The notes: a model not told the origin generated them from the letters alone. A stretch of 64,000 nucleotides of DNA from Thermoanaerobaculia bacterium (GCA_036522835.1 DATDFB010000296.1:1351-65350), one strand, 5' to 3'. Shown: positions 9,877-52,912, counted from the first letter of the stretch. Translations and numbers: made by a program.

Positions 9877-12800
9877 TCATTTCGATCCCAGCGCCGCGTT
9901 GGAGCATGGACTCTTCTCGGGGTATTGCTCGTCGGTGTAGCGGCTCCAGACTTCCTTGCTCAGCGGATCGAGCTTCGTGCTGCAGAGGTGCGCGGCCAGG
10001 ACGTCGGTGCGCGCGTCGGAGATGCGGATGGCCGGTTCCTTGCCGCCGGAGATGACGCCGCTGCCGTCGGCGTTGAACGCCACCGCCCACACCCATCCCT
10101 CCTGCCGGGGGAGCACCTGCGGCAAGGCTTCGGGCTTGCCGGTTTGCCACAGCCGGACCGTTCCGTCGGAGCTGCCGGAGGCGAAGACGCTGCCGTCCGG
10201 ACTGAAGCTGAGCGCGTTGACGCTGGCGCCGTGGCCGGAGTAGGTGAGCTCGGGCCCGTTTCGCAGCGGCGCGGCCACGATGCGTCCGTCCGCTCTGCCG
10301 CAGAGCAAACCGTTCCCGTTCGGCTCGAAGGCCAGGCTGCGGAGATCGTTCGCGTCCTTGCAGACGCGACGCGGCGGGGCATCCGGTTGGGCGACGTTCC
10401 ACAGCAACGCGCCCCCCGCCGGTTGGCTGGCGGCCACGCTCTTGCCGTCGGGGCTGAAGGCAACGGCGCGGACGCCGTTCTTGTTGTCCGCCGTGCGCAA
10501 CTGCCGCGGCGCGGCCGGATGGGCGGCGTCCCACAGCGCCACGGTGCCGTCGAGATTTCCGGCGGCGAGCAGCGATCCCTTCGATTGAAAGGCCAGCGAC
10601 ATCACCGCGGCGTTGCCGGCGGTGAGCTCCTGCGGCGCGGCGTTGCGGCTGCGGAGGTCGAAGAGCGCGATCTTGCCGGCGGCCGTGCCGGCGGCGAGGA
10701 GGTGGTCGCGCAACGCCAGCGTGCGCACCGGGCCGGCCAGGTGCCCGAAGGCCTTCGGCGGCAGCCAATGATCGCGGTCGTAGTCGTGGCGCGAGATCTG
10801 GCCGCTCTCGTCGCCGGCGAAGATGGTGCGGCCGTCGGGCGACACGGCGATGGCCAGCGCGCCATTCTTCTGCGGCAGCTTCTCGATGGTGTGCGACGGA
10901 TAGCGCGCGCCGACGGCGTGCATGGCCGCGAAGAGCTCCGCATCGCTCGGATCGCCGTGGTTCTCGCGGTTGAGGCGATACGCTTCGAGCACGAGGCGGA
11001 CGTCGACGCTGCGGGCCTCGCGCGAGGTCAGCGCCAGCGCGCGCGACGCCGAGAGGTGGCGCAGCGTCGTGGCCGTGTTGCGCTCCTCGTCGGCGCGGTC
11101 CCGGAGCGCCAGAGCCTCGTGCTGCGCCGCCTCGGCCATCTTGGCGCTCTCGCGCGCTTCCCGCTCGCTCTCGAGCGCTTTCCGCTGTTCGATCGTGGCC
11201 CGCTCGCGCGCGCTGTCGGCGAGCTTGCTCTGCTTCTTTGCGATCTCCGTCTGCGTCTCGGCGCGGACGCGCTGATGCTCGGCCTTCTCGCGCTCCTGCA
11301 CGGCCACCCTGCGCGCTTCTTCCGCGCTGCGCTTCTCGTCCTCGGCGCGGCGCTTCTCCAACTGCGCGCGCTTCTGCATGGCGTAGGCCCCTTCGCGCTC
11401 CTGCACCGCTTCGTACTGCGCCAGCTCCGCCGCGGTCTCTCCTCGCCACGCCTTGTAGCCGAGGTAGGTCATGAGCACGAACCCGGCCGAGAGGACGGCC
11501 AGGGCGATGCGCGAGCGCCGCAATTCGCGCCGGCGCCGCCGCTCGCGGGCCTGCGCTTTGTCGTCGCGCTCTTTCATGCTGGCGTCGAGGAAGGCCATGG
11601 CCGGCGCGAACGCCGGGTCGTAGCGGTCCGCCCACTCCGGCGTCGGCTTCTCTTTCTCGCGCCAGGTCAGCGCGAACTGCAGCTCCGGATCGCGCCACAG
11701 CGCCACGCGGCCTTCCGCGTACCGCTGCGCCGCCTGGGCCACGTTGAGATAGAGCTGCCCGGCGTGCGCTTCGTCGTCGGCCCACTTCGACAGCCGCGAC
11801 CAATTGCGCATCAGGCTCTCGTGCGAGATGTCGATGATGGAGCTGTCGTCGATCTCCACGTCCGCGGGCGGCATGAGGAACGAGCGGCCGGCGCGGCGGA
11901 AGCTCTCCGTCACCTGCGCGATCTCGCCGAGGCTGGCCTGCGACACCGCGCGGATCTCGCGCACCGAGGCGGGGCGCCGCACGCCGCGCGGATCCGAGGC
12001 CTTGTCGGTCAGCACCTTGAACATCTTCTCGGCGATCAACTGCCCGAGCTGGTCGAGCTCCCCGAAGGCCTCCTCGGCGTGCCGCGACAGCGCCTCGCGC
12101 ATCGTGCCGATCTCCTCGTAGTGGCGGAGGTCGAGCGGCTCGCCGGGCCGATGGCCCGACTGCCAGCGCTCCCACGTGCGCATCAGCGCGTGCTGCAGGA
12201 TGGGGAGCTGGTCGGGATCGTCGCCGACGTCGTTGAGGAGGCGCGACACCAGCCGCGGCGCGATCGTGGCGCCGCCCACGGCCACGGGGCCGGTGATGGC
12301 GCTGCGCAGCTCGTCGCGCGTCAGCCGCGGGACGAGATAGATCCCTTCGTTGAGCACCTCCGGCAGCGTGCCGAATTCCATGCAGTCGCCGATGAAGTCG
12401 GAGCGCATGGTGATGGCGATGTAGATCGGCACGTCGCTCTCGCGCGCCGCCAGGAGGAGCTTGACGAACGCCGCGGCATCGTCGCCGACGGCGCGGCGGC
12501 TGCGCTTGTAGCGGAAGATCTCTTCGAACTGGTCGACCAGGACCAGCACGTTGTCGGCCGCGCCGGTGTGCGACTGGCGCACGCACTCGACCAGGCCGAG
12601 GCGGCTGGCCCGCAGCGTCGTCTCGAACAGAGCGCGAGTGAGCGTTTCGTCGCTGCCGCTGCCGAGATCATCGGGAACGGTGAGCGCCGCGGCCAGATTG
12701 CCGATGGGGTCTTCGCCCGGACGCATCATCGCTACGCGCCACCGCGAGCCGGCGCGCGTCATCGCCCCGCCGTAGAGGCTGGGAATCAGACCGGAGCGGA

Positions 12801-13011
12801 CCAGCGACGACTTGCCGCTGCCGGAGCGGCCCAGGATGGAGAGAAAGCGCGTCGTGCGCAGCCTCCGCAGCAACTCGTCCGTCTGCCGCTCGCGCCCGAA
12901 GAAGAGATAGTCCTCGTCCGGCTCGAACGGGCGCAGTCCGGGGAACGGATTGACATCCGCCGTCGGATCGAGGCCGATGACGATGCCCGACGAGCCGGTG
13001 CTGGTTCTCAC
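9877..13011 (-). CDS. STAND-type P-loop NTPase (nSTAND/NACHT-like) - TM helix - coiled coil - 7x WD40 repeat protein (1044 aa)
   Basis: In frame with ORF 9877..14592. The GTG start at 13011 overlaps the TGA of the upstream TIR gene (GTGA). N-terminus: PFPGLRPFEPDEDYLFFGRE. Walker A: GRSGSGKSS. Walker B: VLVLVDQFEE. Hydrophobic helix: RIALAVLSAGFVLMTYLGY (aa 500-519). A roughly 130-aa E/R/K/A-rich coiled coil follows. WD40 blades include VNALSFSPDGSVFASGSSDGTVRLWQ and VRAVAFSPDGKSVAAS. Confidence 0.85.
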   Translation of the reverse strand: MRTSTGSSGIVIGLDPTADVNPFPGLRPFEPDEDYLFFGRERQTDELLRRLRTTRFLSILGRSGSGKSSLVRSGLIPSLYGGAMTRAGSRWRVAMMRPGEDPIGNLAAALTVPDDLGSGSDETLTRALFETTLRASRLGLVECVRQSHTGAADNVLVLVDQFEEIFRYKRSRRAVGDDAAAFVKLLLAARESDVPIYIAITMRSDFIGDCMEFGTLPEVLNEGIYLVPRLTRDELRSAITGPVAVGGATIAPRLVSRLLNDVGDDPDQLPILQHALMRTWERWQSGHRPGEPLDLRHYEEIGTMREALSRHAEEAFGELDQLGQLIAEKMFKVLTDKASDPRGVRRPASVREIRAVSQASLGEIAQVTESFRRAGRSFLMPPADVEIDDSSIIDISHESLMRNWSRLSKWADDEAHAGQLYLNVAQAAQRYAEGRVALWRDPELQFALTWREKEKPTPEWADRYDPAFAPAMAFLDASMKERDDKAQARERRRRRELRRSRIALAVLSAGFVLMTYLGYKAWRGETAAELAQYEAVQEREGAYAMQKRAQLEKRRAEDEKRSAEEARRVAVQEREKAEHQRVRAETQTEIAKKQSKLADSARERATIEQRKALESEREARESAKMAEAAQHEALALRDRADEERNTATTLRHLSASRALALTSREARSVDVRLVLEAYRLNRENHGDPSDAELFAAMHAVGARYPSHTIEKLPQKNGALAIAVSPDGRTIFAGDESGQISRHDYDRDHWLPPKAFGHLAGPVRTLALRDHLLAAGTAAGKIALFDLRSRNAAPQELTAGNAAVMSLAFQSKGSLLAAGNLDGTVALWDAAHPAAPRQLRTADNKNGVRAVAFSPDGKSVAASQPAGGALLWNVAQPDAPPRRVCKDANDLRSLAFEPNGNGLLCGRADGRIVAAPLRNGPELTYSGHGASVNALSFSPDGSVFASGSSDGTVRLWQTGKPEALPQVLPRQEGWVWAVAFNADGSGVISGGKEPAIRISDARTDVLAAHLCSTKLDPLSKEVWSRYTDEQYPEKSPCSNAALGSK

Positions 13012-14492
13012 GATGCCGCTCCGCGCGCCTTGGCGATGGCCTCGAGCAGCGGCGCGAGCGCCGCGGGATCGAAGCCGCCGGCCGGCTCGTGCACGAGGAT
13101 GGCCTCGTGCGTGCGGAAGCGCTCCTTCTGCGGCGTCGACGGCGCGCCGACGTAGATGCCCCGCGCCAGGAGCGGCCGCTCCCGCCCCAGGGCCGCGCTT
13201 TTCTGCAGCTCGCGCAGCTTCCGCCGCAGCCAGAGCTCGTCGCCCGCCCCGTAGTAGAGGAGGACCGCGTCGCAAGCGCGGAGGTTCTCCTCGTGCTCGA
13301 GCCGCGCCTGCGCTTCGTCTTCGTCGAAGAAGGGGAGGATGACCTCGTAGCCGGCGCCGAAGAGGTAATCCTCGAGCGGATGCGTGGCTTCGACGTCCCC
13401 TTGATCGCAGAGCAGATAGAGCCGCGGATGCTCCTCCTGCGTCGGAATGGAGGCGGCCTTCACCGCCGCCGGCGGCGGGGGAGCGAGCTTGCGGTAGATG
13501 ATCGACTTCAGATCCTCGATCGGAACTTCCAGCAGCTCCGCCGCGGCGTGCACCGTCGGATCGGTCTGGAGGTGGTTGACGAAGTTTCTCTGGCGCTCGT
13601 CTTCGATGTCGGTCGCCGACGAGAGCCAGATGACGCTCGACAACTTCGTTCCTTTGGCGATCTCCGACGCGAGCGTCTGCTGCCGCTCCACGATCGAGAC
13701 CGTCGCCCCCTCGGGCACGATGCCGTAGTTGCGGCCGACCAGGTGGATCGACACTCTGCTGCGCGCGAGCTGCTCGCGCACCATGGCGTCGAGGTCCGGC
13801 GCGACGAGGGGGAGGGCCCGGTCGGGCAGCACTTCGTACCCATTGCGGATGAGATCGCGCTTGATCGCCTCGCGCTCCTCGCGCAGCTCGTAGCTCGTCT
13901 CGGCCAGATAGAGCGTTCCCTTCGGCTCCGCCGGCGTGGTGGTCACGGCGTCGTTGTTCATCGCGTCGAGGAGCTGGGCGATGTCGTAGGCGAGGTCGTC
14001 GAGCTTGGTCAGAAACGCTCGCTCTTTGCCGTAGTCGCGCGACAGCTCCCGCGGCCGCCCGCTCTCGTCCTGAACGAAGAATTCGTAGCCGAGCATCGGC
14101 TGGACTTCCTCGGGGAGCCGCTCGAAGTTGACCGGCGTCTTGACCACCTTGAAGATGCGGGCCTTGTCGCCGATGCGCACGCCGCCGGTGCGCTCCGCGG
14201 CGCGGCAAAACTCTTTGAGCTCGCGGTTGCACCACTCGGACTGCACGTAGCGCGGCGAGAGGATCGACACCAGCGCCGCGATGCGCGGCAGCCGCTCCAT
14301 GATCGTGTCCGAGAAGATGTCGTTCCCTTGCAGCTTCAGATCGCGCCAGATCCTCGGTTTTTCCCCTCGTACCTGGGCCACGCGGATCTCCAGCAGCCGG
14401 TGCAGCTCGGAGACCCATCCGGGCTCGTCGGCGATCAGGGCTTGGTCGTCGATATGTGCATAGCTGATGAAGAAGTCGTGCTCGAAGGGCAT
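13008..14492 (-). CDS. TIR-domain protein followed by two further TIR/DUF4062-like alpha/beta modules (494 aa)
   Basis: ORF 13008..14492. N-terminus: MPFEHDFFISYAHIDD. TIR signature: LSPRYVQSEWCNRELKEF, with Glu91 at the position of the TIR NADase catalytic Glu. Second module: TLYLAETSYELREEREAIKRDLIRNGYEV (DUF4062-like S-x-x-L-x-x-E-R). Third module: RLYLLCDQGDVEATHPLEDYLFGAGYEVILPFFD. Confidence 0.85.
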   Translation of the reverse strand: MPFEHDFFISYAHIDDQALIADEPGWVSELHRLLEIRVAQVRGEKPRIWRDLKLQGNDIFSDTIMERLPRIAALVSILSPRYVQSEWCNRELKEFCRAAERTGGVRIGDKARIFKVVKTPVNFERLPEEVQPMLGYEFFVQDESGRPRELSRDYGKERAFLTKLDDLAYDIAQLLDAMNNDAVTTTPAEPKGTLYLAETSYELREEREAIKRDLIRNGYEVLPDRALPLVAPDLDAMVREQLARSRVSIHLVGRNYGIVPEGATVSIVERQQTLASEIAKGTKLSSVIWLSSATDIEDERQRNFVNHLQTDPTVHAAAELLEVPIEDLKSIIYRKLAPPPPAAVKAASIPTQEEHPRLYLLCDQGDVEATHPLEDYLFGAGYEVILPFFDEDEAQARLEHEENLRACDAVLLYYGAGDELWLRRKLRELQKSAALGRERPLLARGIYVGAPSTPQKERFRTHEAILVHEPAGGFDPAALAPLLEAIAKARGAAS

Positions 14493-38356: not shown

Positions 38357-39280
38357 ATGCTGGGACTCGACACGCTCGATATCGCGATTGGTCTGGTGTT
38401 CGTCTATCTGATGGTGAGCTTCGTCTGCTCCGCGGCGGTGGAGCTGGTGGAGGTCGTTCTCAAGAACCGTCCGAAGAAGCTCTACGACGGAATCAATGAG
38501 TTGCTCGGAAGCACGTGGGCCGACAACCTCTACAAGCATCCGCTGGTCTCGTCGCTGTATAAGAAGGCCTTCAACGGGCGTAGCGGCGAGCTGCCGTCGT
38601 ACATTCCGGCGCGGAACTTTGCGCTGGCCGTGCTCGAGCTGGCGAAAGGCGGCGCGCCGGGAGCGACCGATCTGCAGACGATCGAGAACCGGATCGCCGC
38701 GCTGACCAGCAATAACGATTTGAAAAAGGCTCTCGAAGCGATCTACCTGAACGCCCAGGGGCAGGCGGAGAACGTCATCAAGGGAATCGAGGATTGGTAC
38801 AACAGCTCGATGGACCGCGTGGCCGGTTGGTACAAGCGCTACGCGCAGGTATGGCTGCTCTTCTTCGGTGCCACCGTCGCGGTGGCGATGAATGTCGATA
38901 CGGTCGTCATCGTGAAGTACCTCTCCATGAACAAGGCCGCGCGCGATGCGATCGTCTCGACGGCCGGCGAGGCGGTGAAGAAGGGGATGCCGCAAAATGC
39001 GAAACCGGAGACGATCAAGGCCGCGGAGCAAAATCTAGTCGACAGCATCAATCACGTCAACTCGCTCGGCCTGCCCATCGGCTGGGGGAAGAATCCGGTG
39101 TGGGATTCGTCGCAGATCTGCCCGGCGGTGAAGGCGCACTTCCTCGGCTGGCTCCTCACCGCCATCGCCGTCTCCTTCGGCGCGCCGTTCTGGTTCGATA
39201 TCCTGAACAAGTTCATGGTCGTCCGCTCCACGGTGAAGCCGAAGGAAAAGAGCGGCGTCGAGAAATCGAAAGACAGCTGA
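38357..39280 (+). CDS. Hypothetical membrane protein (307 aa)
   Basis: ORF 38357..39280. N-terminal TM helix (IAIGLVFVYLMVSFVCSAAV) and two C-terminal TM helices. Lys/Asn-richer and visibly lower in GC than its neighbours. Confidence 0.6.
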   Translation: MLGLDTLDIAIGLVFVYLMVSFVCSAAVELVEVVLKNRPKKLYDGINELLGSTWADNLYKHPLVSSLYKKAFNGRSGELPSYIPARNFALAVLELAKGGAPGATDLQTIENRIAALTSNNDLKKALEAIYLNAQGQAENVIKGIEDWYNSSMDRVAGWYKRYAQVWLLFFGATVAVAMNVDTVVIVKYLSMNKAARDAIVSTAGEAVKKGMPQNAKPETIKAAEQNLVDSINHVNSLGLPIGWGKNPVWDSSQICPAVKAHFLGWLLTAIAVSFGAPFWFDILNKFMVVRSTVKPKEKSGVEKSKDS

Positions 39281-39282
39281 GC

Positions 39283-40125
39283 GTGACCGATTACATCCTC
39301 GACATCGCCTTTGACGACGACGACGAGGAGCTCGTGCAGTCGCGGCTGTTCCTCACGAAGTCCACCGGGAGCGTCGCCGTCGAGGCGACGCTCCTCTCCG
39401 CCTATTTCGACTCCGCCGCGGACCGCGACGCGGCCATGGAGCTGCTGGGCGGGTTCGAGCTCCGCGCGTACGAGCGCCAGCGCCAGGACTGGCTCGCGAA
39501 TTACGAGCAGTCGCTCGAGCCGCTGCTCATCGGCGACTCCTTCGTCGTCGCGCCGGACGCGCGGCTCATCCCGCCGGACACCGCGCGGCACGTGCTCGTC
39601 GTCCCGCAGGAGCAGGCCTTCGGCACCGGCTCGCACGAGACGACGTCGCTCTGCATCGAGCTGCTGGAGCGGATGAAGATCAATCGCGGCCTCGACGTCG
39701 GCGCCGGCAGCGGCATCCTCGCCCTGGCCATGCTTCGCCTCGGCGCGGAGAAAGTGATCGCCTTCGACAACGACGCCGACGCCTATGGCGCGCTCCGCGA
39801 CAACCGCGCCCGCAACGGCATCGATCCGGCGCGGATGCCGCTCTTCATCGGCGGCGTGGAGGCGTTGCGCGGCGGGCGCTTCGACGTGGTGACGATGAAC
39901 ATCATCCCCGAGGTGATCCTGGCGCTCCTCGGCGCCGTGGGGCGCATGCTATGCGCCCCTACCGGTAGGGGCGCACAGCGTGCGCCCACCCTCATCCTCA
40001 GCGGCATCCTTGTCGATCGTGCCGCCGAGGTCGTGCGCGCCTGCGAAAACCGCGGCCTGCGTCTGGCGGAAGAGCGGAAAAAAGGGGAGTGGTGGGCGGG
40101 CTCGTTTAGAATTCCGGAACCATGA
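39283..40125 (+). CDS. prmA: Ribosomal protein L11 methyltransferase
   Basis: GTG 39283 is in frame with ORF 38794..40125. Motifs: FVVAPD, QAFGTGSHETT, LDVGAGSGILA, FDNDADA, DVVTMNI, LILSGIL. Carries an in-frame palindromic insertion at 39941-39986. Confidence 0.85.
   Translation: MTDYILDIAFDDDDEELVQSRLFLTKSTGSVAVEATLLSAYFDSAADRDAAMELLGGFELRAYERQRQDWLANYEQSLEPLLIGDSFVVAPDARLIPPDTARHVLVVPQEQAFGTGSHETTSLCIELLERMKINRGLDVGAGSGILALAMLRLGAEKVIAFDNDADAYGALRDNRARNGIDPARMPLFIGGVEALRGGRFDVVTMNIIPEVILALLGAVGRMLCAPTGRGAQRAPTLILSGILVDRAAEVVRACENRGLRLAEERKKGEWWAGSFRIPEP
39941..39986. repeat. 46-nt near-perfect palindrome inside prmA (family tgcgcccctacc)
   Basis: The arms ggcgcatgctatgcgcccctacc / ggtaggggcgcacagcgtgcgcc pair at 21 of 23 positions. 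The element encodes RMLCAPTGRGAQRAP. Confidence 0.7.
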
Positions 40126-41282
40126 ATCAGCTCAGCGATCGCCTCCGCGGACTCGTGCAATCCGACATCCGCCGCATGTCTCGCGAGTGCGAGCGCGTCG
40201 GCGGCATCAACCTCGGCCAGGGGATCTGCGACCTCCCCACCATCCCTGAGCTCATCGAGGGCGCCTGCGACGCCATCGCCGCGAACAAGGCTACGTACTC
40301 GAAGTTCGAGGGCATCGACATCCTGCGTGAGCGCATCGCCCGCAAGATGGCCCACTACAACGGCATCGTCTGCGATCCGGTTACCGAGGTCGTCGTCACG
40401 GTCGGGTCGAGCGGCGGCTTCGCCGGCGCGGCGCTGGCTACGCTCAACGCCGGCGACGAAGTCATCCTCTTCGAGCCGTATTACGGCTATCACCTCAACA
40501 CGCTCGTCGTCCTCGGCTTCAAGCCGAAGTTCGTGCCGCTGCGCGCGCCCGACTGGACGATCGACTTCGATGCCCTGCGCGCGGCCTTCACGCCGCGCAC
40601 GAAAGCGATCGTGGTCTGCACGCCGTCGAACCCCTCGGGGAAGATGTTCACGCGCGAGGAGCTGGAGCAGATCAGCGCGCTCTGCCGCGAGCACGACGCC
40701 TGGATCTTCACCGACGAGATCTACGAGTACATCGTCTGCGACGGCCGCAAGCACGTGTCGCCGGCCTCGCTCGACGGCATGCGCGACCTCTGCGTCACCA
40801 TCAGCGGCTTCTCCAAGACCTTCTCGATCACCGGCTGGCGCATCGGCTACGTCGTGGCGCCGCAGCGCGTGGCGGGTCCGATCGGCTTGATGAATGATCT
40901 GCTCGCGATTTGCGCGCCGACGCCGCTGCAGTGGGGCGTGGCCCGCGCGCTGGAAGTGCCGGACAGCTACTACGCCGACATGGCCGCGTCGTATCAGAAG
41001 AAGCGCGACATGCTCGCCGCGGCGCTGACGGAGGCGGGCTTCACGCCGTCGATCCCGCAGGGGTCGTACTACATGCTGGCCGAGATTCCGGACGAGTTCC
41101 GCGACTCCGCCGAGGCGGCCAAGGCGCTGCTCGAGGAGGCGCGCGTGGCCTCGGTGCCGGGGACGGCCTTCTTCGAGTCCGACACCGGCAAGCGCATGCT
41201 CCGCTTCTGCTACGCGAAGGACCTCGACGCGCTCGACGAAGCGTGCAAGCGCATCCGGGCCTTCCGCGCGGTCAAGGCATAG
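40122..41282 (+). CDS. PLP-dependent aminotransferase, class I/II
   Basis: ORF 40122..41282. Motifs: CTPSNPSGK, and SGFSKTFSITGWRIGY (PLP lysine). ATGA overlap with the prmA stop. Confidence 0.85.
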   Translation: MNQLSDRLRGLVQSDIRRMSRECERVGGINLGQGICDLPTIPELIEGACDAIAANKATYSKFEGIDILRERIARKMAHYNGIVCDPVTEVVVTVGSSGGFAGAALATLNAGDEVILFEPYYGYHLNTLVVLGFKPKFVPLRAPDWTIDFDALRAAFTPRTKAIVVCTPSNPSGKMFTREELEQISALCREHDAWIFTDEIYEYIVCDGRKHVSPASLDGMRDLCVTISGFSKTFSITGWRIGYVVAPQRVAGPIGLMNDLLAICAPTPLQWGVARALEVPDSYYADMAASYQKKRDMLAAALTEAGFTPSIPQGSYYMLAEIPDEFRDSAEAAKALLEEARVASVPGTAFFESDTGKRMLRFCYAKDLDALDEACKRIRAFRAVKA

Positions 41283-42378
41283 GCCCGATCTGCGCGCCCT
41301 TCGCCGCCGGCGGCGAGCAGCCGTTGCCGAGCGCCGGCGCCGTCGTCTCGGTGGCGTACGTCGGCTCGCCGACCATCGCCACCGTCATCCACGACTGCCC
41401 GCCGGTATTGAGGTACAGCCAGCCGCCCGCGTCGGAGCCGGAGACGGGTGGGAAGAGCGTCGGACTCGTGGTCAGGTATGCGCCGGTGACCGAGGGGCCG
41501 GCCGCCGCCGTTCCGATGACCGCGTTCTCGTGCTCGTCGAAGCGCACGGCCTCGACGAACGGCATGCTGGAATTCGCCTGCACGCCGATGCATGCGCCGG
41601 CCGAAAGCCCTTCGCGCCAGATCTTGATCGCCGACTTCAGCGCGTCGCTGTTGAGCACGCGCGGCGCGAACGCCGAGGGGAGCGGCTGCCGGCGGTCGGC
41701 GTGCTGCGCGAGCGGGTCGGGCATGAAGCGCTCGTAGAACGTGTGCGGCAGCCGCGTGGCCACGACCATCCCCGCCGCCCCTCCCTCGGGAATGGCGCGG
41801 ATGTGCACGAGCGGTCCACCGAAGGCGCGCTCGCCCTGGATCTGCTGGTAATCGCCGGTGAGCACGTTGTCGTAGAGCAGCGTCGAAAAGAGATCGGAGC
41901 TCTTCGCCGCGCACGTCGACACGACGTCGATCGTGGCGTAGCCGGCGGCGCGCAGGTGAAAAAAGCCGATCGTCGCCGCGCAGGCGCGGCTGCCGCCGAT
42001 CGTCAGCGCGCTCTGCACGTCGGGGAGCACCGACGGCGCGATGTTGCCGGCGTGGCACTCCGTCGGCGGCAGGTTGCCTAGGGCGAGGACGTCGTAGAGG
42101 TTGATCCCCTGCACGTCGTAGCCGGTGAGGTGGACGGGGAAGTTGATGACCGGGAAGCCCCAGTCCGTCCAAAGCGTGACGTTGGCGATCACCGCCTTCG
42201 GCGACACGTTCTGCAGCGTGACGAGCGTCGTGGCCGCGCGCGACTTGAGGTCGACTTCGAAGTACGGCAAGAGCAGCGTCGCCGCCGGCTGCAGGGCGAC
42301 GTCGCAGCTGTCGTCGTTGTTCGTCGTGGCGGCGAACAGCGGCGCGGCAAGGAGCAGCAGTGCGAGCGCGGTTCTCAT
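41272..42378 (-). CDS. Secreted protein of the unrecognised 'DDSCD' family, paralog A (368 aa, short form)
   Basis: ATG 42378 is in frame with ORF 41272..42507 and overlaps the TGA of paralog B (ATGA). Signal peptide: MRTALALLLLAAPLFAATTNNDDSCD. Shared blocks: LLLPYFEVD, VTLWTDWGFP, LTGYDVQGINLYDV, GYATIDVV, YDNVLTGDYQQI, LVHIRAIPEGGAAG, DRRQPLPS, IWREG, VRFDEHEN, GGWLYLN, ALGNGCSP. Confidence 0.8.
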   Translation of the reverse strand: MRTALALLLLAAPLFAATTNNDDSCDVALQPAATLLLPYFEVDLKSRAATTLVTLQNVSPKAVIANVTLWTDWGFPVINFPVHLTGYDVQGINLYDVLALGNLPPTECHAGNIAPSVLPDVQSALTIGGSRACAATIGFFHLRAAGYATIDVVSTCAAKSSDLFSTLLYDNVLTGDYQQIQGERAFGGPLVHIRAIPEGGAAGMVVATRLPHTFYERFMPDPLAQHADRRQPLPSAFAPRVLNSDALKSAIKIWREGLSAGACIGVQANSSMPFVEAVRFDEHENAVIGTAAAGPSVTGAYLTTSPTLFPPVSGSDAGGWLYLNTGGQSWMTVAMVGEPTYATETTAPALGNGCSPPAAKGAQIGPMP

Positions 42379-43841
42379 GGGTTTGCATTCCCCGCCGGCG
42401 CGATCTGCGCGCCCACCTTCGGCGACGGCGAGCAGCCGTTGCCGAGCGCCACGGCCGTCGCCTCGGTCGCGTACGTCGGCACGGCGAACATCGATGTGAT
42501 CACCCAATTCTGGCTCTGGCGCAGGCCGATCGTCGTGCTCGTGTTCGTGCGGAAATCACGCGGAATGCCGGGCGGCACGACGTTGACGCTGTACACCGTC
42601 GATCCGCCGTTGTTGAGGTTGAGGTAAAGCCAGCCGCCGACGTCGCCGGAAGGGCCGGGCGGCGGGAAGAAGGCGCCGGCCGTCGTCGAGGGCGAAAATG
42701 ACAGCGGCGACCCTGACGGCAACGGCGGCGCGAGGATCGGCGGCGGGATGAACACCGTCGAGTTCTCGTGCTCGTCGAAGCGGACGGTCTCGACGATCGG
42801 CACGGCGCTGTTGCGGACGTAGTCCTTGCACGCGGCGTCGCCGCCGACGAGCCCCTCGCGCCAGATCTTGAGCGAGGCGTTGAAGCCGGTCGGACCTCCG
42901 CTGATGTAGCGCGGCGCGAATACGGACGGCAGCGGCTGCCGCCTGTCGATGGTGCGGTTCGCCGGGAAGCCGACGGTGTAGCGGTCGTAGAAGGTATAGG
43001 GCAGGCTCGACGAGACCGCGGCGCCCGCCGCCCCGCCCTCGGGGATGGCGCGGATGTGCACGAGCGGCCCGCCCTGCGCGTAGCTCTGGGCCCCGCGCGG
43101 CACGATCTGCTGGTAGTCGCCGGTGAGGACGTTGTCGTAGAGCAGCACGCCGCTGTAGTAGTCGCTCGACGTGGGCGACTTCGCCGAGCAGGTCGCCACG
43201 ACGTCGATGGTGGCGTAGCCGACGGCGTTGGCGTGCACGCCGCCGAGGCGGTCGGCGGCTCCCGTGCCGGGCGGAGGCGGCGAACAAGGGTATCCGTTCG
43301 AGACCGGAATGCCGGTAGTGAAGATCTGCTGGATGTCGGTGAGCAGCGATGACGTGAAGAGGCCCGGAGCATTCGCGCAGGCGGTGGTGACGTCCGACAG
43401 GAACCGCGGATTGGCGGTGTTCGCCGCCGGCTGCGAGCCGGCGGTCGGATTCGACGGTATGGGCGTCGTGATCGACGTGCCGCTCGTTCCCGGCGTCGAG
43501 CCCGGCGCGATCACGGCGCGCGCGAAGACGTCGTAAAGATTGATGCCCTGCACGTCATAGCCCGTCAGGAAGATGTTGAAGGTCAGCGCCGGAAAGCCCC
43601 AGTCGGTCCAGAGCGTGACGTGGGCGATCTGCGGCTGGTTCGAGACGTTCGCCACGGTGAAGAGCGTCGTCACGGCGGTGGACTGCGGCGATTTGAAGTC
43701 GACCTCGAAGTACGGCAGGAGCAGCGTCGCCGCCGGCTGCACGGCGATATCGCAACTGTCGTCGTTGCTCGTGGTGGTGGGACCGGCGGCGAAGAGCGGC
43801 GCAGCGAGGATCGATGCCAGAAGGATGGCGGGAACACGCAT
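42375..43841 (-). CDS. Secreted 'DDSCD' family protein, paralog B (488 aa)
   Basis: ORF 42375..43841. Signal peptide MRVPAILLASILAAPLFAAG. GGGAGG lies 8 nt upstream of the ATG. Same conserved blocks as paralog A, plus a Pro/Gly/Thr-rich insert. Confidence 0.85.
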   Translation of the reverse strand: MRVPAILLASILAAPLFAAGPTTTSNDDSCDIAVQPAATLLLPYFEVDFKSPQSTAVTTLFTVANVSNQPQIAHVTLWTDWGFPALTFNIFLTGYDVQGINLYDVFARAVIAPGSTPGTSGTSITTPIPSNPTAGSQPAANTANPRFLSDVTTACANAPGLFTSSLLTDIQQIFTTGIPVSNGYPCSPPPPGTGAADRLGGVHANAVGYATIDVVATCSAKSPTSSDYYSGVLLYDNVLTGDYQQIVPRGAQSYAQGGPLVHIRAIPEGGAAGAAVSSSLPYTFYDRYTVGFPANRTIDRRQPLPSVFAPRYISGGPTGFNASLKIWREGLVGGDAACKDYVRNSAVPIVETVRFDEHENSTVFIPPPILAPPLPSGSPLSFSPSTTAGAFFPPPGPSGDVGGWLYLNLNNGGSTVYSVNVVPPGIPRDFRTNTSTTIGLRQSQNWVITSMFAVPTYATEATAVALGNGCSPSPKVGAQIAPAGNANP

Positions 43842-43894
43842 GGCGATGACCTCCCGCCGTCTGTACGCACGTCATTTGCCAAACGTTGGGCGGA

Positions 43895-45298
43895 TCAGGG
43901 CGCCGGGCCGATGGCCGCGCGGAAGCTGAAGTCGGGCGCCGGCGAGCAGCCGTTGCCGACCGCCGGCGCATCCATCTCCACGCCGAAGCGCCCCTCGGCG
44001 AACATCGACGTGACGACCCAGGCCTGGCTCTGGCGCCGGCCTCTCGTCGTCGATCCGGAGCCGTAGTTGCGCGCCGACGAGTACGCCTCCGAGCCGCCGT
44101 TGTTGAGGTTGAGGAAGAGCCATCCGGCAACGTCGCCCGAGATCGAGGGCCGCGGAAAATTCGAGGTTGTCGTCCCTTGGCTCGACGTCGCCGGCGCCAC
44201 CGGTGTGAAGCAAACCAAGTTGCAGGGGGGGCCATACGTGGCGTTCTCGTGCTCGTCGAATCGGACGATGTCGGCGATCGCCATCCGGTCGTTGGACTCG
44301 TAGCCGATCGGGCACGCCGTCGGCGCGGCGAATGCCTCGCGCCAGATCTGCAGGGTCGTGTTGAACGAGTTGAGTCCTCCTTCGATGAACCGCGCCAGGA
44401 ACGCCGAGGGGAGCGGCTGTCGCCGGTCCTGCGTGCGCACGGCCGCGCCGGGCGTGTAGAGGTCGTAGAACGTGTATGGCAGCTCCGTGGCCATGACGGT
44501 CCCGGCCGCTCCTCCCTCGGGAACGGCGCGGATGTGCACGAGCGGATTGCCGCCCGCGTAGTTGCCGGTGGCGGGATTCGGGTTGAGATGCTGGTAGTCG
44601 CCGAGGAGCACGTTGTCGAAGAGGATCTCCCCGTTGAAGTAGAGCGGCGACAGCGGCGAGGTGGCGTTGCAGTTCGCGACGACGTCGATGGTCGCGTAGC
44701 CGACGGCGTCCTGGCCGTGATTGTTCGAGCCGACGTTCTTCATGATCGCGCAGTCAGGACGGCTGATCGTTCCGGTGGTGAACGCCGAGCGCAGCTCGGC
44801 GAGCAGGGCCGCGTCGATCGCGCCTGGATTGCTCGCGCACGTCGTCGCCGCGTCGGCGAGGAAGTGCGGGTTCTGGTCGTTCTGGAACGGCTGCGAGCCG
44901 GAGACTTGATTCCGCGGGACGGCCGTCCGGTTCGACGTGCCGGGCGAGGCTCCCGGTGCAATGACGCCGCGCGCGAAGACGTCCCCCAGGTTGATCGACT
45001 GCACGTCATAGCCGGTCAGGAAGATGTTGAACGTCAGCATCGGATACGCCCAGTCGGTCCAGAGCGTCACGCGCGCGATCTGCGGCTGCGGCGTGGTGTT
45101 CTGGACGGTGAAGAGCGTCGTGTGCGCCGTCGTCGAGGGCGATTGAAAGTCGACGTCGAAGTACGGCAGCAGCAGCGTTGCTGACGGAAGCAGCGAGATG
45201 TCGCAGGAGTCGTCGTTGGCGGTCGTGGCCGGGCCGGCGCCGAGCGCGGAGGCGGAGACGAAAAGGAGCACAGCGAAGCAACGCATCGGCTGGCTCAT
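43895..45298 (-). CDS. Secreted 'DDSCD' family protein, paralog C (467 aa)
   Basis: ATG 45298 is in frame with ORF 43895..45742 and overlaps the TGA of paralog D (ATGA). N-terminus: MSQPMRCFAVLLFVSASALGAGPATTANDDSCDISLLP. Confidence 0.8.
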   Translation of the reverse strand: MSQPMRCFAVLLFVSASALGAGPATTANDDSCDISLLPSATLLLPYFDVDFQSPSTTAHTTLFTVQNTTPQPQIARVTLWTDWAYPMLTFNIFLTGYDVQSINLGDVFARGVIAPGASPGTSNRTAVPRNQVSGSQPFQNDQNPHFLADAATTCASNPGAIDAALLAELRSAFTTGTISRPDCAIMKNVGSNNHGQDAVGYATIDVVANCNATSPLSPLYFNGEILFDNVLLGDYQHLNPNPATGNYAGGNPLVHIRAVPEGGAAGTVMATELPYTFYDLYTPGAAVRTQDRRQPLPSAFLARFIEGGLNSFNTTLQIWREAFAAPTACPIGYESNDRMAIADIVRFDEHENATYGPPCNLVCFTPVAPATSSQGTTTSNFPRPSISGDVAGWLFLNLNNGGSEAYSSARNYGSGSTTRGRRQSQAWVVTSMFAEGRFGVEMDAPAVGNGCSPAPDFSFRAAIGPAP

Positions 45299-46755
45299 GG
45301 CGTCGGATTCGCCGCCGGGCCGATCGGCGCTTTGGCCGAGAGATCGGGCGCCGGCGAGCAGCCGTTGCCGGCCGCCAGCGCGTCCATCTCCACCGCATAG
45401 CGTCCCTCGGCGAACATCGACGTCACCACCCACGCCTGGCTTTGGCGCGCTCCGCGCGTGGTCGTGCCGAAGCGATAGTTCCCGCGCGCCGACGAGTACG
45501 CGCTCGAGCCGCCGTTGTTCAGATTGAGAAAAAGCCAACCGGCGACGTCGCCCGACGCTGACATCGGCGGCCACAGAGTCGTATTCGCCGCCGATACCGC
45601 TACCGCGGTCCCGGTTCCCGGACGCCCCGGCGGGCACAGAGTGCTGCAGGACAAGGAGACGACCGTCGCGTTCTCGTGCTCGTCGAAACGAACGGCCTCG
45701 GCGATCTCGAGATTCGAATTGCTGCGATACGGCATCGGGCACGCCGCCGGAGCGGCGAACGCCTCGCGCCAGATCTTGAAATTCGTGTTGAAGGCGTTCG
45801 TTCCCCCGTTGATGAAGCGCGGCATGAACGTCGACGGCAGCGGCTGGCGCCGGTCCGCCGTCCGCGTCGTACCGGCGGTGTAGAGGTCATAGAACGTGAA
45901 CGGCAACGTGGTCGGGAAGGACTGGCCGGCCGCGCCTCCTTCCGGCACGGCACGGATATGCACGAGCGGATTTCCGCCGGCGTAGTTTCCGGTCGAGGGG
46001 TTTGGATTGACGTCCTGGCTGTCGCCGGTGAGAACGTTGTCGTAGAGCATCTCGGCGAAGTAGTGCGATCCGATCGGCGTTTCGCTGTCGCAGTTCGCCA
46101 TGACGTCGATCGTGGCGTAGCCGACCGCGTTCGCGTGCGGATAGCCGACGTCTGTCACGGCCGCGGCGCAGCCGGGCGCGCTGATCCGTCCCGTGGTGAA
46201 CACAGTCTGCAGGTCGGCCGTCAATGCGGCGCCGAGGGATCCGGGATTGCTGCTGCACGTGACCGCGGCGTCGGGGAGGAAGTGCGGATTCGCGTTGTTG
46301 GGGGCCGGCTGCGTGCCCGGATGGGAGCCGGGTAAAGCATTCTGCGGGTTGTCCGGCACGGTCGTTTTGTTCGATGTTCCACCAGTGCCCGGCGCAACGC
46401 CCGGCGCGATCACGCCGCGCGCGAAGACGTCGTACATGTTGATGCCCTGAACGTCGTAGCCGGTCAGGAAGATGTTGAACGTCAGCATCGGATACGACCA
46501 GTCCGTCCAGAGCGTGACGCGGGCGATCTGCGGCATGGCCGTCGTGTTCTGGACCGTGAAGAGCGTCGTCCGCGCCGTCGTGGCCGGCGATCGGAAATCG
46601 ACTTCGAAGTGGGGCAGAAGGAGCGTCGCCGCGGGGAACAGCGAGATGTCGCAGGAGTCGTCGTTGTCGGTCGTCGCCGGCTTGACGGCCGTGAATGTGC
46701 CGGCGGCGGCAGTGGTGGCCAGGAGAGCGGCGAGGATCAGCGCGAAGCAACGCAT
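45295..46755 (-). CDS. Secreted 'DDSCD' family protein, paralog D (486 aa)
   Basis: ORF 45295..46755. N-terminus: MRCFALILAALLATTAAAGTFTAVKPATTDNDDSCDISLFP. Same conserved blocks as the other paralogs. Confidence 0.85.
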   Translation of the reverse strand: MRCFALILAALLATTAAAGTFTAVKPATTDNDDSCDISLFPAATLLLPHFEVDFRSPATTARTTLFTVQNTTAMPQIARVTLWTDWSYPMLTFNIFLTGYDVQGINMYDVFARGVIAPGVAPGTGGTSNKTTVPDNPQNALPGSHPGTQPAPNNANPHFLPDAAVTCSSNPGSLGAALTADLQTVFTTGRISAPGCAAAVTDVGYPHANAVGYATIDVMANCDSETPIGSHYFAEMLYDNVLTGDSQDVNPNPSTGNYAGGNPLVHIRAVPEGGAAGQSFPTTLPFTFYDLYTAGTTRTADRRQPLPSTFMPRFINGGTNAFNTNFKIWREAFAAPAACPMPYRSNSNLEIAEAVRFDEHENATVVSLSCSTLCPPGRPGTGTAVAVSAANTTLWPPMSASGDVAGWLFLNLNNGGSSAYSSARGNYRFGTTTRGARQSQAWVVTSMFAEGRYAVEMDALAAGNGCSPAPDLSAKAPIGPAANPTP

Positions 46756-46798
46756 CGCCCTGCATTACGGACGCGCCGCGCGCAGCGTCGGTGCGCGT

Positions 46799-47238
46799 TT
46801 ACGTCGTCGGGTTCGCCGCCGGCCCGATTGGCGCCTTCGCTTCCGGCGCCGGCGTGCAGCCGTTGCCGAGCGCCGTCGCCGGGAGATCGAAGCCCCAGGC
46901 ATCGCGGCCCGCCCACGGCACTTCCTTCGGTTTCGCCGAGGGAGTCGAAGGAATCGCCGGTCTAATCGGGCGAGGCAGCGTTTTTCGCGGCGCACTCGGC
47001 GACGACGTCGATCGTCGCGTAACCGATGGCATTCGCGTGCACGCCGCCCACCGGCGTCGCCGCACAGGTCGTGCTCCTTGTAGCCGGTGAGGAAGAGCGG
47101 GAAGGAGACGGCCGGAAACGACTGTCGGTGCAGGGCGAGGTCGCAACTGTCGTCGTTGTTCGTCGTGGTCGGGCGGATCGGCGACGTGGCGGCCGACGCC
47201 GTGGCGGCGACGAGCAGCAGCAGCGCGAAGCAGCGCAT
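46799..47238 (-). pseudogene. Decayed fifth copy of the 'DDSCD' family (internally deleted and frameshifted)
   Basis: Frame 1 (from ATG 47238): MRCFALLLLVAATASAATSPIRPTTTNNDDSCDLAL...FPLFLTGYK. Another frame reads VHANAIGYATIDVV. A third frame ends ALGNGCTPAPEAKAPIGPAANPTT-stop at 46799. Family blocks are kept, but in 440 bp instead of about 1.4 kb and in different frames. The 5' leader gcgcgtccgtaatgcagggcgATG is shared with paralog D. Confidence 0.7.
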
Positions 47239-47273
47239 CGCCCTGCATTACGGACGCGCCGCGCGCGCCGCCG

Positions 47274-47723
47274 CTACTTCCGATTCAAATCCGCGAGCAC
47301 TTCCTCGGCGTGCCGCGCCGGCTCGACCTTCTTGTAGATCTTCCGGATCCGCCCGTCCGGGCCGATCCAATACGTCGTCCGCGTCACGCCCCAGGTGCGC
47401 CGGCCGTCGAGGTTCTTCTCCTTCCACACGCCGTACATCTTGGCCACGTCGGCGGTGGCGTCGGAGAGGAGCGGGAAGTTGAACTTCTCCTGCGAGTCGA
47501 GCAAGCCGGTCGACACGCCGAGCACCGCGGCGTGCGCTTTGGAGATGTCGGACTCGTGCTCCTGGAACGAGCGCGCCTGATCGGCCGGGTCGTCGTTCGG
47601 ATAGAAGTAGAGGATCACGTCCTGCCCGCGGAACTGCCCCAGCGACACGTCCTTGCCGCGCGTGGAAGGGAGGCGGAAGTCGGGGGCAAGGTCGCCGATT
47701 TTGGGCTCGTAGAAGTCTTGCAT
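47274..47723 (-). CDS. Peroxiredoxin (Bcp/AhpC-TSA fold) homolog with no cysteine
   Basis: ORF 47274..47723. Fold-typical motifs: APDFRLP, VILYFYP, FPLLSD, AKMYGVW, HAEEVL. The canonical FYPKD.TPGCT motif reads FYPNDDPADQA here, and the protein contains no Cys. Confidence 0.75.
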   Translation of the reverse strand: MQDFYEPKIGDLAPDFRLPSTRGKDVSLGQFRGQDVILYFYPNDDPADQARSFQEHESDISKAHAAVLGVSTGLLDSQEKFNFPLLSDATADVAKMYGVWKEKNLDGRRTWGVTRTTYWIGPDGRIRKIYKKVEPARHAEEVLADLNRK

Positions 47724-50631: not shown

Positions 50632-52080
50632 ATGCCGCTTTCCCGCCGCCTCGCCGAGGCCGCCGTTTGCCTCGTGGCGCTCTCGACTCTCATCACCCCG
50701 TTCCGGCGCGACCTCTTCGTCGGCGACGAGACCAAGTACGCCCAGGTCATTCGCGAAATGCGCGCCACCGGCGCGTTTTTCCTGCCGACGCTGGGGGGGC
50801 AGCCATTCACCCATAAGCCTCCTATCCACTTCTGGCTCATCGACTTACTGACGTTCCCCTTAGGCGTCTATTCGATGTGGGCGTTCGTCCTGCCGTCGCT
50901 CCTGGCGTTCGCGCTGCTGCTGGGTTTGTTGTGGCGGCGCGGCGGCCCGATGGCCGCGTTCGTCTGCGGGACGTCGTTCCTCATCTGGGGCTCGGCGCAG
51001 TCGGCGCGGATGGACGTGTCGTTCACGCTGCTGATCGCGTACGGGCTCATCCGTCTCGAGGATTTCTTCGAGCACGACGACTTTCGCGCCCTGCTCGCCT
51101 GCGCGGCCGCGCTCGGCGTGGCGACGCTGATCAAAGGTCCGATGGCGCCGGTGATCGGCCTCGTGCTGTTCGCTCTGGAGTGGTGGCGCCGCCGCCGCGT
51201 GCCGCGCGGGAACTACCTGCCGGCAATCGCGGCGCTCGTGCTGATCCCGCTGGCCTGGCTCGTCCCGGCGATGCTCCTCGGCGGCCACGCCTACACGCGC
51301 GAGGTGATCGTGAAGCAGACCGTCGGGCGGGCAGTGGCGACGTGGGTCCACTCCGCGCCGCCGTGGTACTACGTTCTGCACCTGCCGGCGACGCTCTTCC
51401 CGTGGTTCTTCCTCGCCGTTGCGGCCGTAATCGCGCGCCGCTGGTCGTTCCTGACGAACTGGATTCTCGCGGTGCTCGTGCCGTACTCGCTCCTGGCGTC
51501 GAAGCTCGACGTCTACATGATGGCCATGATCCCCGCCCTAGCGCTGCTGAGTGTGGAGTGCGGCGGCCATGCCGCCGCTCGATGCCGCGTCGCGAACGCG
51601 ATCGCAGCATCGATCCTGACCCTCTTCGTCGCCGGCGTCTTCTTCAACGTTCCCGACGTCCCGATCCACGGCCTCTGCATCGCCACCGCGATTGCGGGCG
51701 TCATCGCCTTGATCCTCGTTCTTCGATCGTCGTTTGCAACGGGCACGATCGCCGTCGGCCTCGCCTCGCTCGTCCCTCTGCTCTACACCGCCGTCGCCCT
51801 CATGCCCCAGGTCAACGAGCTCGCCTCCACCCGCCCCCTCGTGCGCGCGCTCGTCCGCCAGCAGGTCCCCGGCGACCAGATCACGCTCTATTGGTGCCCA
51901 TATCTCTGGACGCGCGACATGCCGCGCGACCTCGAGCGCGTCACCTACGCGGATGAGCTGCAGACGGTGCGCACGCCGGTGCTCGCGATTGCCCGCGCGA
52001 AAGCGCCGGCGCTCCCGGGTTTCCAACGCGTCGACGAGCTGAAGATGATCGGAAAGTGGTTCGATGTCTATCGACGCTAA
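50632..52080 (+). CDS. Glycosyltransferase family 39/83 (ArnT / PMT_2-like) membrane protein
   Basis: ORF 50632..52080. Motif: GDETKYAQVIREMRATGAFFLPTLGGQPFTHKPPIHFW. More than 10 hydrophobic helices. Confidence 0.75.
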   Translation: MPLSRRLAEAAVCLVALSTLITPFRRDLFVGDETKYAQVIREMRATGAFFLPTLGGQPFTHKPPIHFWLIDLLTFPLGVYSMWAFVLPSLLAFALLLGLLWRRGGPMAAFVCGTSFLIWGSAQSARMDVSFTLLIAYGLIRLEDFFEHDDFRALLACAAALGVATLIKGPMAPVIGLVLFALEWWRRRRVPRGNYLPAIAALVLIPLAWLVPAMLLGGHAYTREVIVKQTVGRAVATWVHSAPPWYYVLHLPATLFPWFFLAVAAVIARRWSFLTNWILAVLVPYSLLASKLDVYMMAMIPALALLSVECGGHAAARCRVANAIAASILTLFVAGVFFNVPDVPIHGLCIATAIAGVIALILVLRSSFATGTIAVGLASLVPLLYTAVALMPQVNELASTRPLVRALVRQQVPGDQITLYWCPYLWTRDMPRDLERVTYADELQTVRTPVLAIARAKAPALPGFQRVDELKMIGKWFDVYRR

Positions 52081-52912
52081 GCACCGCCTCGCCGCCGCCG
52101 CGTTCATGGCGCTGCTGCTGCTGTCGGTCTTCTGGCCTGAGCCGGTCGTCGACGTGAACCGCCTCTGCTGCAACGCCGCGCTCACCGTCGACGACCTCTC
52201 CTTCCTCGGGCGCGAAGCGCCGTCGTGGGACGTCGTCTTCTGGTGCCTCGCCGGCCTCTTCGCGCTCGCGCTGATGCACCCGAGCGGCGAGCCGCGCGAC
52301 TACGCGCTGCCCCGCATGCGCGTGTCGTGGAAGCCGCTGCTCGCGATCATCCCCGCCGCGATCGTCGTCTTCCTCGCCTGGCGCTTCGCCGACGCGCCGG
52401 TGACCGCGTGGGCGGAGCGCATCCAATCCGACACGATCCAGGACTTCATCCGCATCACCAACCGCCTGGGCGGCGGGATGAACCCGGCAATGATCATCGT
52501 CTTCTTCTACCTCGCCGGCGTTGCCTACGGCGTGCCGCGCTGGAAGAGTTACGCCCTTTCGATGACGATCGCCGGCGCCGGCGCGGGCCTTCTCGCGCAG
52601 ATCGTCAAGTACACCGTCCTCCGCTCCCGCCCCGAGCTCTGGCTCGGCCCCTTCCACCACGCTCGCGCCTCAGCGACGTCGTTCCCGAGCGGCCACACCA
52701 TCGGCGCCTTCGCGTTGGCGGGGGTGCTGCTGTTTTTGTCCCCCTCGCGCACGCTGCGCGTCGTCGCGGTGCTGACCGCCGCCGCCGTCGGCCTCTCGCG
52801 CATCCTGGCCTTCCGCCACTGGACCTCGGACGTCGTCGCCTCGGCCGCGCTGGGACTGATCGTCGCGGCAATCGTGAGCCAGCTCACACGCGACCCGGCG
52901 CGCGTCGAGTAG
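52064..52912 (+). CDS. PAP2-family phosphatase (membrane)
   Basis: ORF 52064..52912. PAP2 motifs: KYTVLRSRP, PSGHT, SRILAFRHWTSD. It overlaps the previous gene by 17 nt. Confidence 0.8.
   Translation: MSIDAKHRLAAAAFMALLLLSVFWPEPVVDVNRLCCNAALTVDDLSFLGREAPSWDVVFWCLAGLFALALMHPSGEPRDYALPRMRVSWKPLLAIIPAAIVVFLAWRFADAPVTAWAERIQSDTIQDFIRITNRLGGGMNPAMIIVFFYLAGVAYGVPRWKSYALSMTIAGAGAGLLAQIVKYTVLRSRPELWLGPFHHARASATSFPSGHTIGAFALAGVLLFLSPSRTLRVVAVLTAAAVGLSRILAFRHWTSDVVASAALGLIVAAIVSQLTRDPARVE

Follow-up and report, generated by a model that had tools for sequence, protein, structure and literature searches.

The window analyzed here is a stretch of 64,000 nucleotides from a Thermoanaerobaculia bacterium (GCA_036522835.1 DATDFB010000296.1:1351-65350), with a GC content of 64-72% throughout, which hosts a tandem array of four genes coding for paralogous proteins with predicted signal peptides. 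All four genes lie on the minus strand and were delimited by open reading frame (ORF) and translation: paralog D at 45295-46755 (486 amino acids), C at 43895-45298 (467), B at 42375-43841 (488) and A at 41272-42378 (368). D, which scores 726 bits against the hidden Markov model (HMM) of the family, is composed of a predicted signal peptide and one family module with variable insertions, while A is a minimal module devoid of Pro/Ser/Thr/Asn-rich insertions. The start codon of C overlaps the stop codon of D, and that of A the stop codon of B, in both cases through an ATGA. C and B are instead separated by a spacer of 53 nucleotides, where a Shine-Dalgarno-like GGGAGG can be read on the minus strand (43850-43855), 8 nucleotides before the ATG of B. 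The ORF coordinates and the sequence confirm in this respect a first-pass annotation, made from the DNA alone, which had described the four genes with the same lengths, the two overlaps and the spacer with its GGGAGG. The paralogs share 51-69% pairwise amino acid identity and, at the DNA level, the array is a direct repeat with a unit of approximately 1.45 kb and 60-85% identity, far beyond chance. A scan for sigma-70 promoters and intrinsic terminators returned nothing over the shuffled background.

A fifth copy, which had been missed in the first-pass annotation, survives in decayed form on the minus strand, in the interval that separates D from the AhpC/TSA (bcp-type) gene upstream (pseudogene E, 46799-47238). 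It was detected through a tblastn alignment of D against the region and through matches to the family HMM. Large internal deletions separate its fragments, which are distributed over three frames and comprise a signal peptide with NNDDSCD, the middle block GGVHANAIGYATIDVV and a C-terminal ALGNGCTP...IGPAANPTT. The counterpart of pseudogene E is the intact first module of a syntenic locus, L005, one of the 77 related loci from GTDB (L-numbered in the following) used for the counts of arrays and genomic context. The start region of D (46733-46790, minus strand) is composed of 35 nucleotides upstream of the gene and of the first 23 coding nucleotides. In the direct-repeat analysis, these 58 nucleotides are 90% identical to the matching stretch at pseudogene E (47216-47273), and the 25 nucleotides preceding the ATG are identical in the two copies. 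Since the start regions of D and E are duplicated across both upstream and coding sequence, the duplication unit spans the gene boundary.

Each of the four paralogs bears a single module of around 350 residues, predicted to be compact and all-beta, behind a Sec-type signal peptide. The N-termini of A-D are Sec-like, with one Arg each followed by a 10-residue window with a mean Kyte-Doolittle hydropathy of 2.66-3.04. We recognized signal peptides heuristically, by looking for a basic n-region, a hydrophobic h-region no shorter than 10 residues, small residues ahead of the mature chain and no lipobox, and by this heuristic all four paralogs have the type I signal peptide of Sec-exported proteins. 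A basic residue and then a strongly hydrophobic stretch precede the module in all four paralogs and in 300 of the 327 N-termini examined in the family. Neither a lipobox nor a C-terminal hydrophobic anchor was detected in the four paralogs and in the family N-termini, and the first conserved cysteine comes after D-S. Overall, six cysteines are conserved (25, 108, 133, 156, 263 and 354 in the numbering of paralog A, used throughout), and all six are present in 389 of the 455 unique modules. The number of cysteines is even in 93 of 112 aligned members. C133 and C263 were lost together 11 times, compared to a single loss of C133 alone, and this suggests that the two residues may pair as a disulfide. 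The signal-peptide-like N-termini and the pattern of cysteines support the earlier proposal that the proteins are secreted and possibly disulfide-bonded.

The core of the module is exceptionally conserved. Across the 455 modules, 70 positions are conserved in at least 93% of the sequences, and 17 of them are polar. The conserved polar residues include N57, D72, D88, D151, D170, N171, D176, H192, D228, R230, R240, R255, D281, E284, N285 and Q328, and the conserved aromatic ones include F40, W70, Y87, Y147, F214, Y215, W254, F280, W320 and W330. Twelve blocks had previously been described as invariant among the four paralogs: eight of these are indeed exact in all of them, whereas each of the remaining four is altered in a single paralog (HLTGYDVQ and a truncated LNTGG in A; IDVM, GDSQ and AAGNGCSP in D). 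Variable insertions enter the core at five fixed sites, and the comparison of the paralogs confirms that A has none, as had been noticed. Pro, Ser, Thr and Asn make up 49.6% of the insertions of B, C and D relative to A, as opposed to 27.8% of the core. N57, encoded at approximately 42208-42210 of the window, occurs in 453 of the 455 modules and is followed by x-S/T in 91% of them, thus forming a conserved N-x-S/T sequon. Given that these sequons are not enriched overall (ratio of observed to shuffled 1.05), N57 may instead be a structural turn residue. Another set of motifs is found in the members associated with wzm and wzt genes, which are described below. N-A-T-[FY] occurs just after their signal peptide in 15 cases out of 18, and their C-terminus has N-x-T-P in 12 and N-x-N-P in 4 of the 18 (for example, L009 9860-11431 and L053 5490-6998). 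These motifs could be glycosylation sequons or processing signals. As for the C-terminal ends in the window, paralog B has NANP and paralog D has NPTP.

Searches against known families and structures did not return any assignment. The four paralogs have no match in Pfam-A (2025) and NCBIfam (June 2026) at E ≤ 1, no recurrent Pfam family is found at E ≤ 10 when 93 diverse members are scanned singly, and PDB has no matches by sequence or by profile. We then relied on the model of paralog A predicted by AlphaFold2. A model based on an alignment of 48 sequences was poor (predicted local distance difference test score, pLDDT, 61.6) and was superseded by one based on 112 sequences (pLDDT 92.0; predicted TM-score, pTM, 0.90; 295 of 368 residues with pLDDT ≥ 90). 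The resulting model is all-beta, with around 18 strands and a few short helices. When compared to PDB with Foldseek, it has no match at E ≤ 1e-3 and its query-normalized TM-score is never higher than 0.25; similarly, the fold search against BFVD returned no global match. We rejected as non-specific the matches to the CupB6 adhesin, to accessory domains of GH2, to complement MG domains, to PNGase F and to norovirus capsids (TM-score ≤ 0.25). Enzymes with two jelly rolls, such as PNGase F and peptidylglycine hydroxylating monooxygenase, were also rejected (1pnf, 3pms and 8dsj; Foldseek probability 0.10-0.21, TM-score 0.15-0.19). No homology between the N- and C-terminal halves of the module was detected (hhalign probability 0.6%), which led us to reject the reading of an internally duplicated beta-sandwich.

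The only structural match with high probability is TM1070 (1nc7), with a Foldseek probability of 1.00, a TM-score of 0.69-0.73 normalized to the 116-residue target and a root mean square deviation of 3.7-5.1 Å, but with E of 0.012-0.016 and a query-normalized TM-score of 0.25. Since TM1070 was already the top match of the 48-sequence model, where only residues 33-155 were confident, it most likely corresponds to the predicted N-terminal sandwich. Together with ASRT, TM1070 defines the ASRAH superfamily of eight-stranded beta-sandwiches (Pfam DUF1362/ASRT; PDB 1nc7 and 2ii7), which De Souza, Iyer and Aravind proposed to bind sugars and which has extracellular versions in cell-surface proteins (PMC2739507). 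It has two hallmarks: where strand 1 begins, a polar residue is followed by a conserved Trp, and strand 2 closes with a near-invariant Asn, which makes the tight turn into strand 3 (PMC2739507). In our family, N57 closes predicted strand 2 (residues 49-57) and may be the counterpart of the hallmark Asn (N32 of TM1070), whereas predicted strand 1 (residues 34-42, TLLLPYFEV) has no Trp in any of the paralogs. Moreover, the ASRT/DUF1362 profile is matched neither by the four paralogs at E ≤ 1 nor by the 93 members at E ≤ 10, the alignment with TM1070 covers at most approximately one third of the 350-residue module, ASRAH proteins do not have the framework of six cysteines and ASRT proper is a small cytoplasmic tetramer. 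We take this resemblance as a lead, without assigning the family to ASRAH. Overall, the predicted fold of the module has no solved counterpart, and the proteins form a new family with respect to Pfam 2025, NCBIfam June 2026, PDB to 2026 and BFVD, although the N-terminal part might be a very divergent member of a known superfamily, given the lead offered by ASRAH. The statement of the first-pass annotation that the family cannot be assigned to any known domain therefore held in the sequence, profile and structure searches that could have overturned it.

The family is large and unannotated. When paralog B was used as a query, more than 3,260 of the 8,000 candidates examined matched at E ≤ 1e-3. 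None of these proteins has a Pfam domain, all are unnamed or 'hypothetical', and those with a named organism come from metagenome-assembled genomes (MAGs) of Thermoanaerobaculia or Acidobacteriota, Thermoanaerobaculia being a class of Acidobacteriota. A profile search against 1.84 billion cluster representatives identified 1,787 clusters at E ≤ 1e-3, counted at 50% identity, and 625 clusters at E ≤ 1e-30. In a scan of GTDB with one genome per species, at least 547 stretches encode the family; the best 80 of these loci all belong to MAGs of Thermoanaerobaculia or Acidobacteriota, a single genome often containing several of them. When a divergent module was used as the seed, the search revealed another branch of around 405 amino acids with the same taxonomy. 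In a divergent branch FDEHEN becomes FDEGGN. The taxonomic exception is a partial protein with TSP_3 and DUF11, found on a contig of 3.8 kb that is binned as Actinomycetota. The viral contigs of IMG/VR and the plasmids of PLSDB yielded no relatives, and full-text searches of the literature found no description of the family. As far as seen, the family is almost entirely confined to Thermoanaerobaculia and Acidobacteriota, which answers the question of its distribution raised in the first-pass annotation.

Modules are found in various combinations. Homologs of around 800-850 amino acids carry one signal peptide followed by two modules joined in the same chain, and a few members have C-terminal PKD, BACON or weak fn3 domains. 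In one protein of 1,897 amino acids, four PKD domains precede two modules. A giant PKD protein is also encoded next to some members of the family (see below), and we rejected it as a homolog of the module. P0240, which has PKD domains and two modules, resembles it only in the PKD region.

Tandem arrays turned out to be typical of the family, as the first reading of the window had led us to ask. In the 77 related loci all arrays are head-to-tail on the same strand, with a maximum of nine modules (L022 and L025). At the chromosomal site shared with the window, where we count four genes and the pseudogene, L002 has two copies and L005, whose flanks are approximately 90% identical to those of the window, has six modules. 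The syntenic order in L002 is psd, pssA, asd, bcp, DinB_2, the two copies and the convergent aminotransferase gene. Three of the window paralogs could be paired with modules of L005, and we measured for each pair the ratio of nonsynonymous to synonymous substitution rates (dN/dS): A with module 5 (87% amino acid identity, dN/dS 0.22), B with module 4 (83%, 0.33) and C with module 3 (90%, 0.30). D has no one-to-one ortholog in L005 and is 70% identical to module 3. The differences in copy number and the dN/dS values of the orthologs indicate that the array gains, loses and erodes copies, while the intact genes are under purifying selection. These data show that the arrays grow, fuse into two-module proteins and decay via unequal recombination between the 1.45-kb repeats. 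Same-strand paralogs, changes in copy number between close relatives, a pseudogene remnant and hypervariable segments place the array in the birth-and-death class.

In two sub-branches of the family, the genomic position is conserved within loci for the export and synthesis of polysaccharides. In 28 of the 77 loci, the genes on the same strand are wzm (ABC2_membrane), an FG-GAP protein, a single family member, a PKD protein, wzt (ABC_tran and Wzt_C) and a GT2-methyltransferase, with a divergent TPR gene upstream (L009 6920-19799; others are, for example, L018, L044, L055, L059, L067 and L081). Both the FG-GAP and the PKD proteins are secreted, and the latter is 1,400-1,800 amino acids long. 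Apart from two near-identical pairs, the neighbors in these clusters are 27-79% identical to those of L009, and wzt is absent only at contig ends. L045 and L060 have a second family member just before wzt. In seven other loci, a Bac_transf priming sugar transferase is followed, on the same strand, by a pair of members, and a GT1 is found upstream (L071 2606-12633, L036, L050, L066, L069, L072 and L076). Transferase and pair are adjacent in five of the seven, and are separated in L071 and L072 by a DinB_2 gene and a 285-amino acid ORF. Over the conserved columns, the paralogs of the window share 56-57% identity with the wzm/wzt-type member, and hence shared basic biochemistry is to be expected. 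Many members are stand-alone genes with no partner, and the branch of around 405 amino acids occurs in two large genomes as an isolated gene, oriented divergently to lipA.

With somewhat less than even confidence, we favor the explanation that these are secreted envelope proteins with three disulfides that act on or with the surface polysaccharide of the cell that makes them, most likely by binding or anchoring glycans like a lectin. According to this explanation, the proteins would fold outside the cytoplasm, where the three disulfides would form, and would work at the cell envelope. Ligand and/or Ca2+ sites would be built from the conserved acidic and aromatic residues, with the variable loops pointing outward. 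Catalytic processing of glycans would be a close second to lectin-like binding or anchoring. The ATGA coupling between stop and start codons and the frequent two-module fusions suggest that neighboring paralogs are made together and work as pairs. We also put forward, only tentatively and with considerable doubt, that the 350-residue module is a new extracytoplasmic fold, with an ASRAH-like sandwich and three disulfides, defining a Thermoanaerobaculia-specific family of carbohydrate-binding or carbohydrate-active proteins that works together with Wzm/Wzt export, probably in pairs.

Several observations weigh against the favored explanation. Neither the four paralogs nor the 93 members compared to Pfam have a sequence or profile link to carbohydrate-binding or carbohydrate-active families, and the best TM1070 match, at E of 0.012, covers at most around a third of a protein whose strand 1 misses the hallmark Trp of ASRAH. 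Furthermore, the genes that flank the window array and the largest arrays are unrelated housekeeping genes and not glycan genes, so that the link with glycans is carried over to the window from other sub-branches. Finally, the gene order at wzm and wzt fits glycan acceptors equally well as glycan binders.

In a different explanation, the proteins would be structural envelope glycoproteins, such as subunits of a surface layer, a matrix or an adhesin, decorated with the polysaccharide exported by the neighboring Wzm/Wzt. The Pro/Ser/Thr/Asn-rich loops and the terminal N-x-T would be the attachment sites, and the arrays would provide surface variation. Besides the composition of the insertions (49.6% compared to 27.8% in the core), this is consistent with the position of the wzm/wzt-type member between two large adhesin-like secreted proteins (FG-GAP and PKD), with its N-A-T-[FY] and C-terminal N-x-T-P motifs (15 and 12 of 18), with N57-x-S/T in 91% of the modules and with the presence, 4 kb away from the array, of a gene for a PMT_2 (GT-C) glycosyltransferase; birth-and-death arrays with a pseudogene are also typical of variable surface proteins. 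The loops, however, are wholly missing from paralog A and from the branch of around 405 amino acids, sequons show no overall enrichment (1.05) and N57 may be a structural turn residue, and no oligosaccharyltransferase was seen adjoining the family genes. Around 70 near-invariant positions, of which 17 are polar, are moreover unusually strict for a purely structural surface protein. We regard this explanation as rather unlikely. The same strict conservation of polar residues, from D72 to Q328, and of the aromatic residues W70, Y87, Y147, Y215, W254, W320 and W330 could alternatively be the signature of a secreted enzyme with a new fold. Such an enzyme, for example a glycoside hydrolase, polysaccharide lyase or peptidase, would degrade external polymers for nutrition, and duplications would widen the range of substrates. 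The C-terminal fusions with PKD, BACON and fn3 resemble the accessory domains of secreted carbohydrate-active enzymes, and the many stand-alone members without partner genes fit as well. Still, neither Pfam nor Foldseek matched a catalytic family or fold, FDEHEN changes to FDEGGN in a divergent branch and only one His is conserved. The conserved gene orders indicate the cell's own polysaccharide machinery rather than genes for uptake or catabolism. We consider an enzyme of this type unlikely.

Two further possibilities appear very improbable. A thiol or redox function outside the cytoplasm could be tied to the peroxiredoxin (bcp) directly upstream of the window array or to DinB_2, which immediately precedes the two copies of L002 and, in L071 and L072, is separated from the pair by a single gene; the six conserved cysteines of the modules would fit such a function. 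Among the 77 loci, however, bcp adjoins the family only in L005 and in the L002-type genome, which are both syntenic relatives of the window, and for this reason it is not evidence of function. A functional link to bcp, the neighbor that the first-pass annotation had suggested examining, thus finds no support, and we rejected it as local synteny. In addition, no CxxC motif is present, and the cysteines are scattered along the chain and usually come in even numbers, which is what structural disulfides would produce. We also give very little credit to polymorphic secreted toxins, or effectors of competition, that diversify in arrays. The tandem diversification, the variable loops and the pseudogene remnant would agree with them, but the modules are not interspersed with small immunity-like genes, neither a dedicated secretion system nor a toxin domain was found, and the phage (IMG/VR) and plasmid (PLSDB) collections have no relatives. 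One sub-branch is, instead, a conserved single-copy gene in a housekeeping-like envelope locus.

Wzm/Wzt-dependent loci in which Wzt has a C-terminal domain for glycan recognition and a methyltransferase terminates the chain are known for the O9a O-antigen of E. coli and for the S-layer glycan of Geobacillus. One sub-branch of the family is embedded in a similar setting, between wzm and a wzt with Wzt_C and with a GT2-methyltransferase downstream. We know of no such locus with three genes for secreted proteins (FG-GAP, this family and giant PKD) between wzm and wzt, and the window array lies outside a locus of this type. Carbohydrate-binding modules (CBMs) and lectin-like beta-sandwiches also share several features with the family, namely the all-beta structure predicted for it, secretion, conserved aromatic and acidic positions, fusions to PKD, BACON and fn3 and the association with polysaccharide genes. 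Unlike typical CBMs, the family module is three times larger, is usually stand-alone instead of being the appendage of an enzyme and matches no CBM profile or structure. Regarding the organization of the genes, tandem clusters of paralogous secreted or surface proteins that evolve by birth and death, such as the one of PMC2568036, are similar in the head-to-tail paralogs on the same strand, in the differences of copy number between close relatives, in the pseudogene remnants and in the recombination units that span gene boundaries. The difference is that the protein family is unrelated, and that ours adds in-frame fusions of two modules and a core of exceptional conservation.

Thermoanaerobaculia occur widely in soils and sediments, and hardly any have been cultured. 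With around 1,800 clusters at 50% identity, several loci per genome and a core as conserved as that of an enzyme, the family represents a large piece of the biology of the class. Its placement with wzm/wzt and with a priming transferase offers a testable entry to the assembly and organization of surface polysaccharides in Acidobacteriota. If the more tentative reading of a new extracytoplasmic fold is true, the family would be a lineage-defining and massively expanded component of the envelope, working directly with the export of polysaccharides by Wzm/Wzt. If the module proves to be a new fold that binds or processes glycans, it would provide a new family for carbohydrate biology and a marker for Thermoanaerobaculia. 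Even if the proteins were only structural components of the surface, they would still offer a clean case of birth-and-death, where fusion, fission and decay are visible between close relatives.

The remaining genes around the array are as follows. The AhpC/TSA (bcp-type) peroxiredoxin gene lies directly upstream (47274-47723), and the flank on one side comprises asd-like, pssA, psd, PMT_2, PAP2, Uma2 and SMC genes. Among them, the gene for PMT_2 (GT-C, ArnT/PMT-like) overlaps that for the PAP2 phosphatase (50632-52912, plus strand), at around 4 kb from the array. The pair is also found in L002 and might be linked to envelope glycosylation. The flank on the other side comprises aminotransferase, PrmA-like (by synteny with L002) and pyrophosphatase genes. 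Paralog A and the convergent gene for a class I/II aminotransferase (40122-41282, plus strand) overlap at their 3' ends by 11 nucleotides (41272-41282), and no terminator-like site was found between the two. Between the pyrophosphatase and PrmA-like genes lies an ORF of 307 amino acids (38357-39280, plus strand), whose N-terminus is hydrophobic and which matches nothing in Pfam. This stretch is not alignable to the DNA of L005 and hence corresponds to a variable segment. In L001, a locus from a distant genome of 5 Mb, two small genes without Pfam matches lie between a two-module gene and three single-module genes (12491-13859). One codes for a Thr/Ser/Asp-rich protein of 125 amino acids with a lipobox-like VVSC, and the other for a secreted protein of 299 amino acids.

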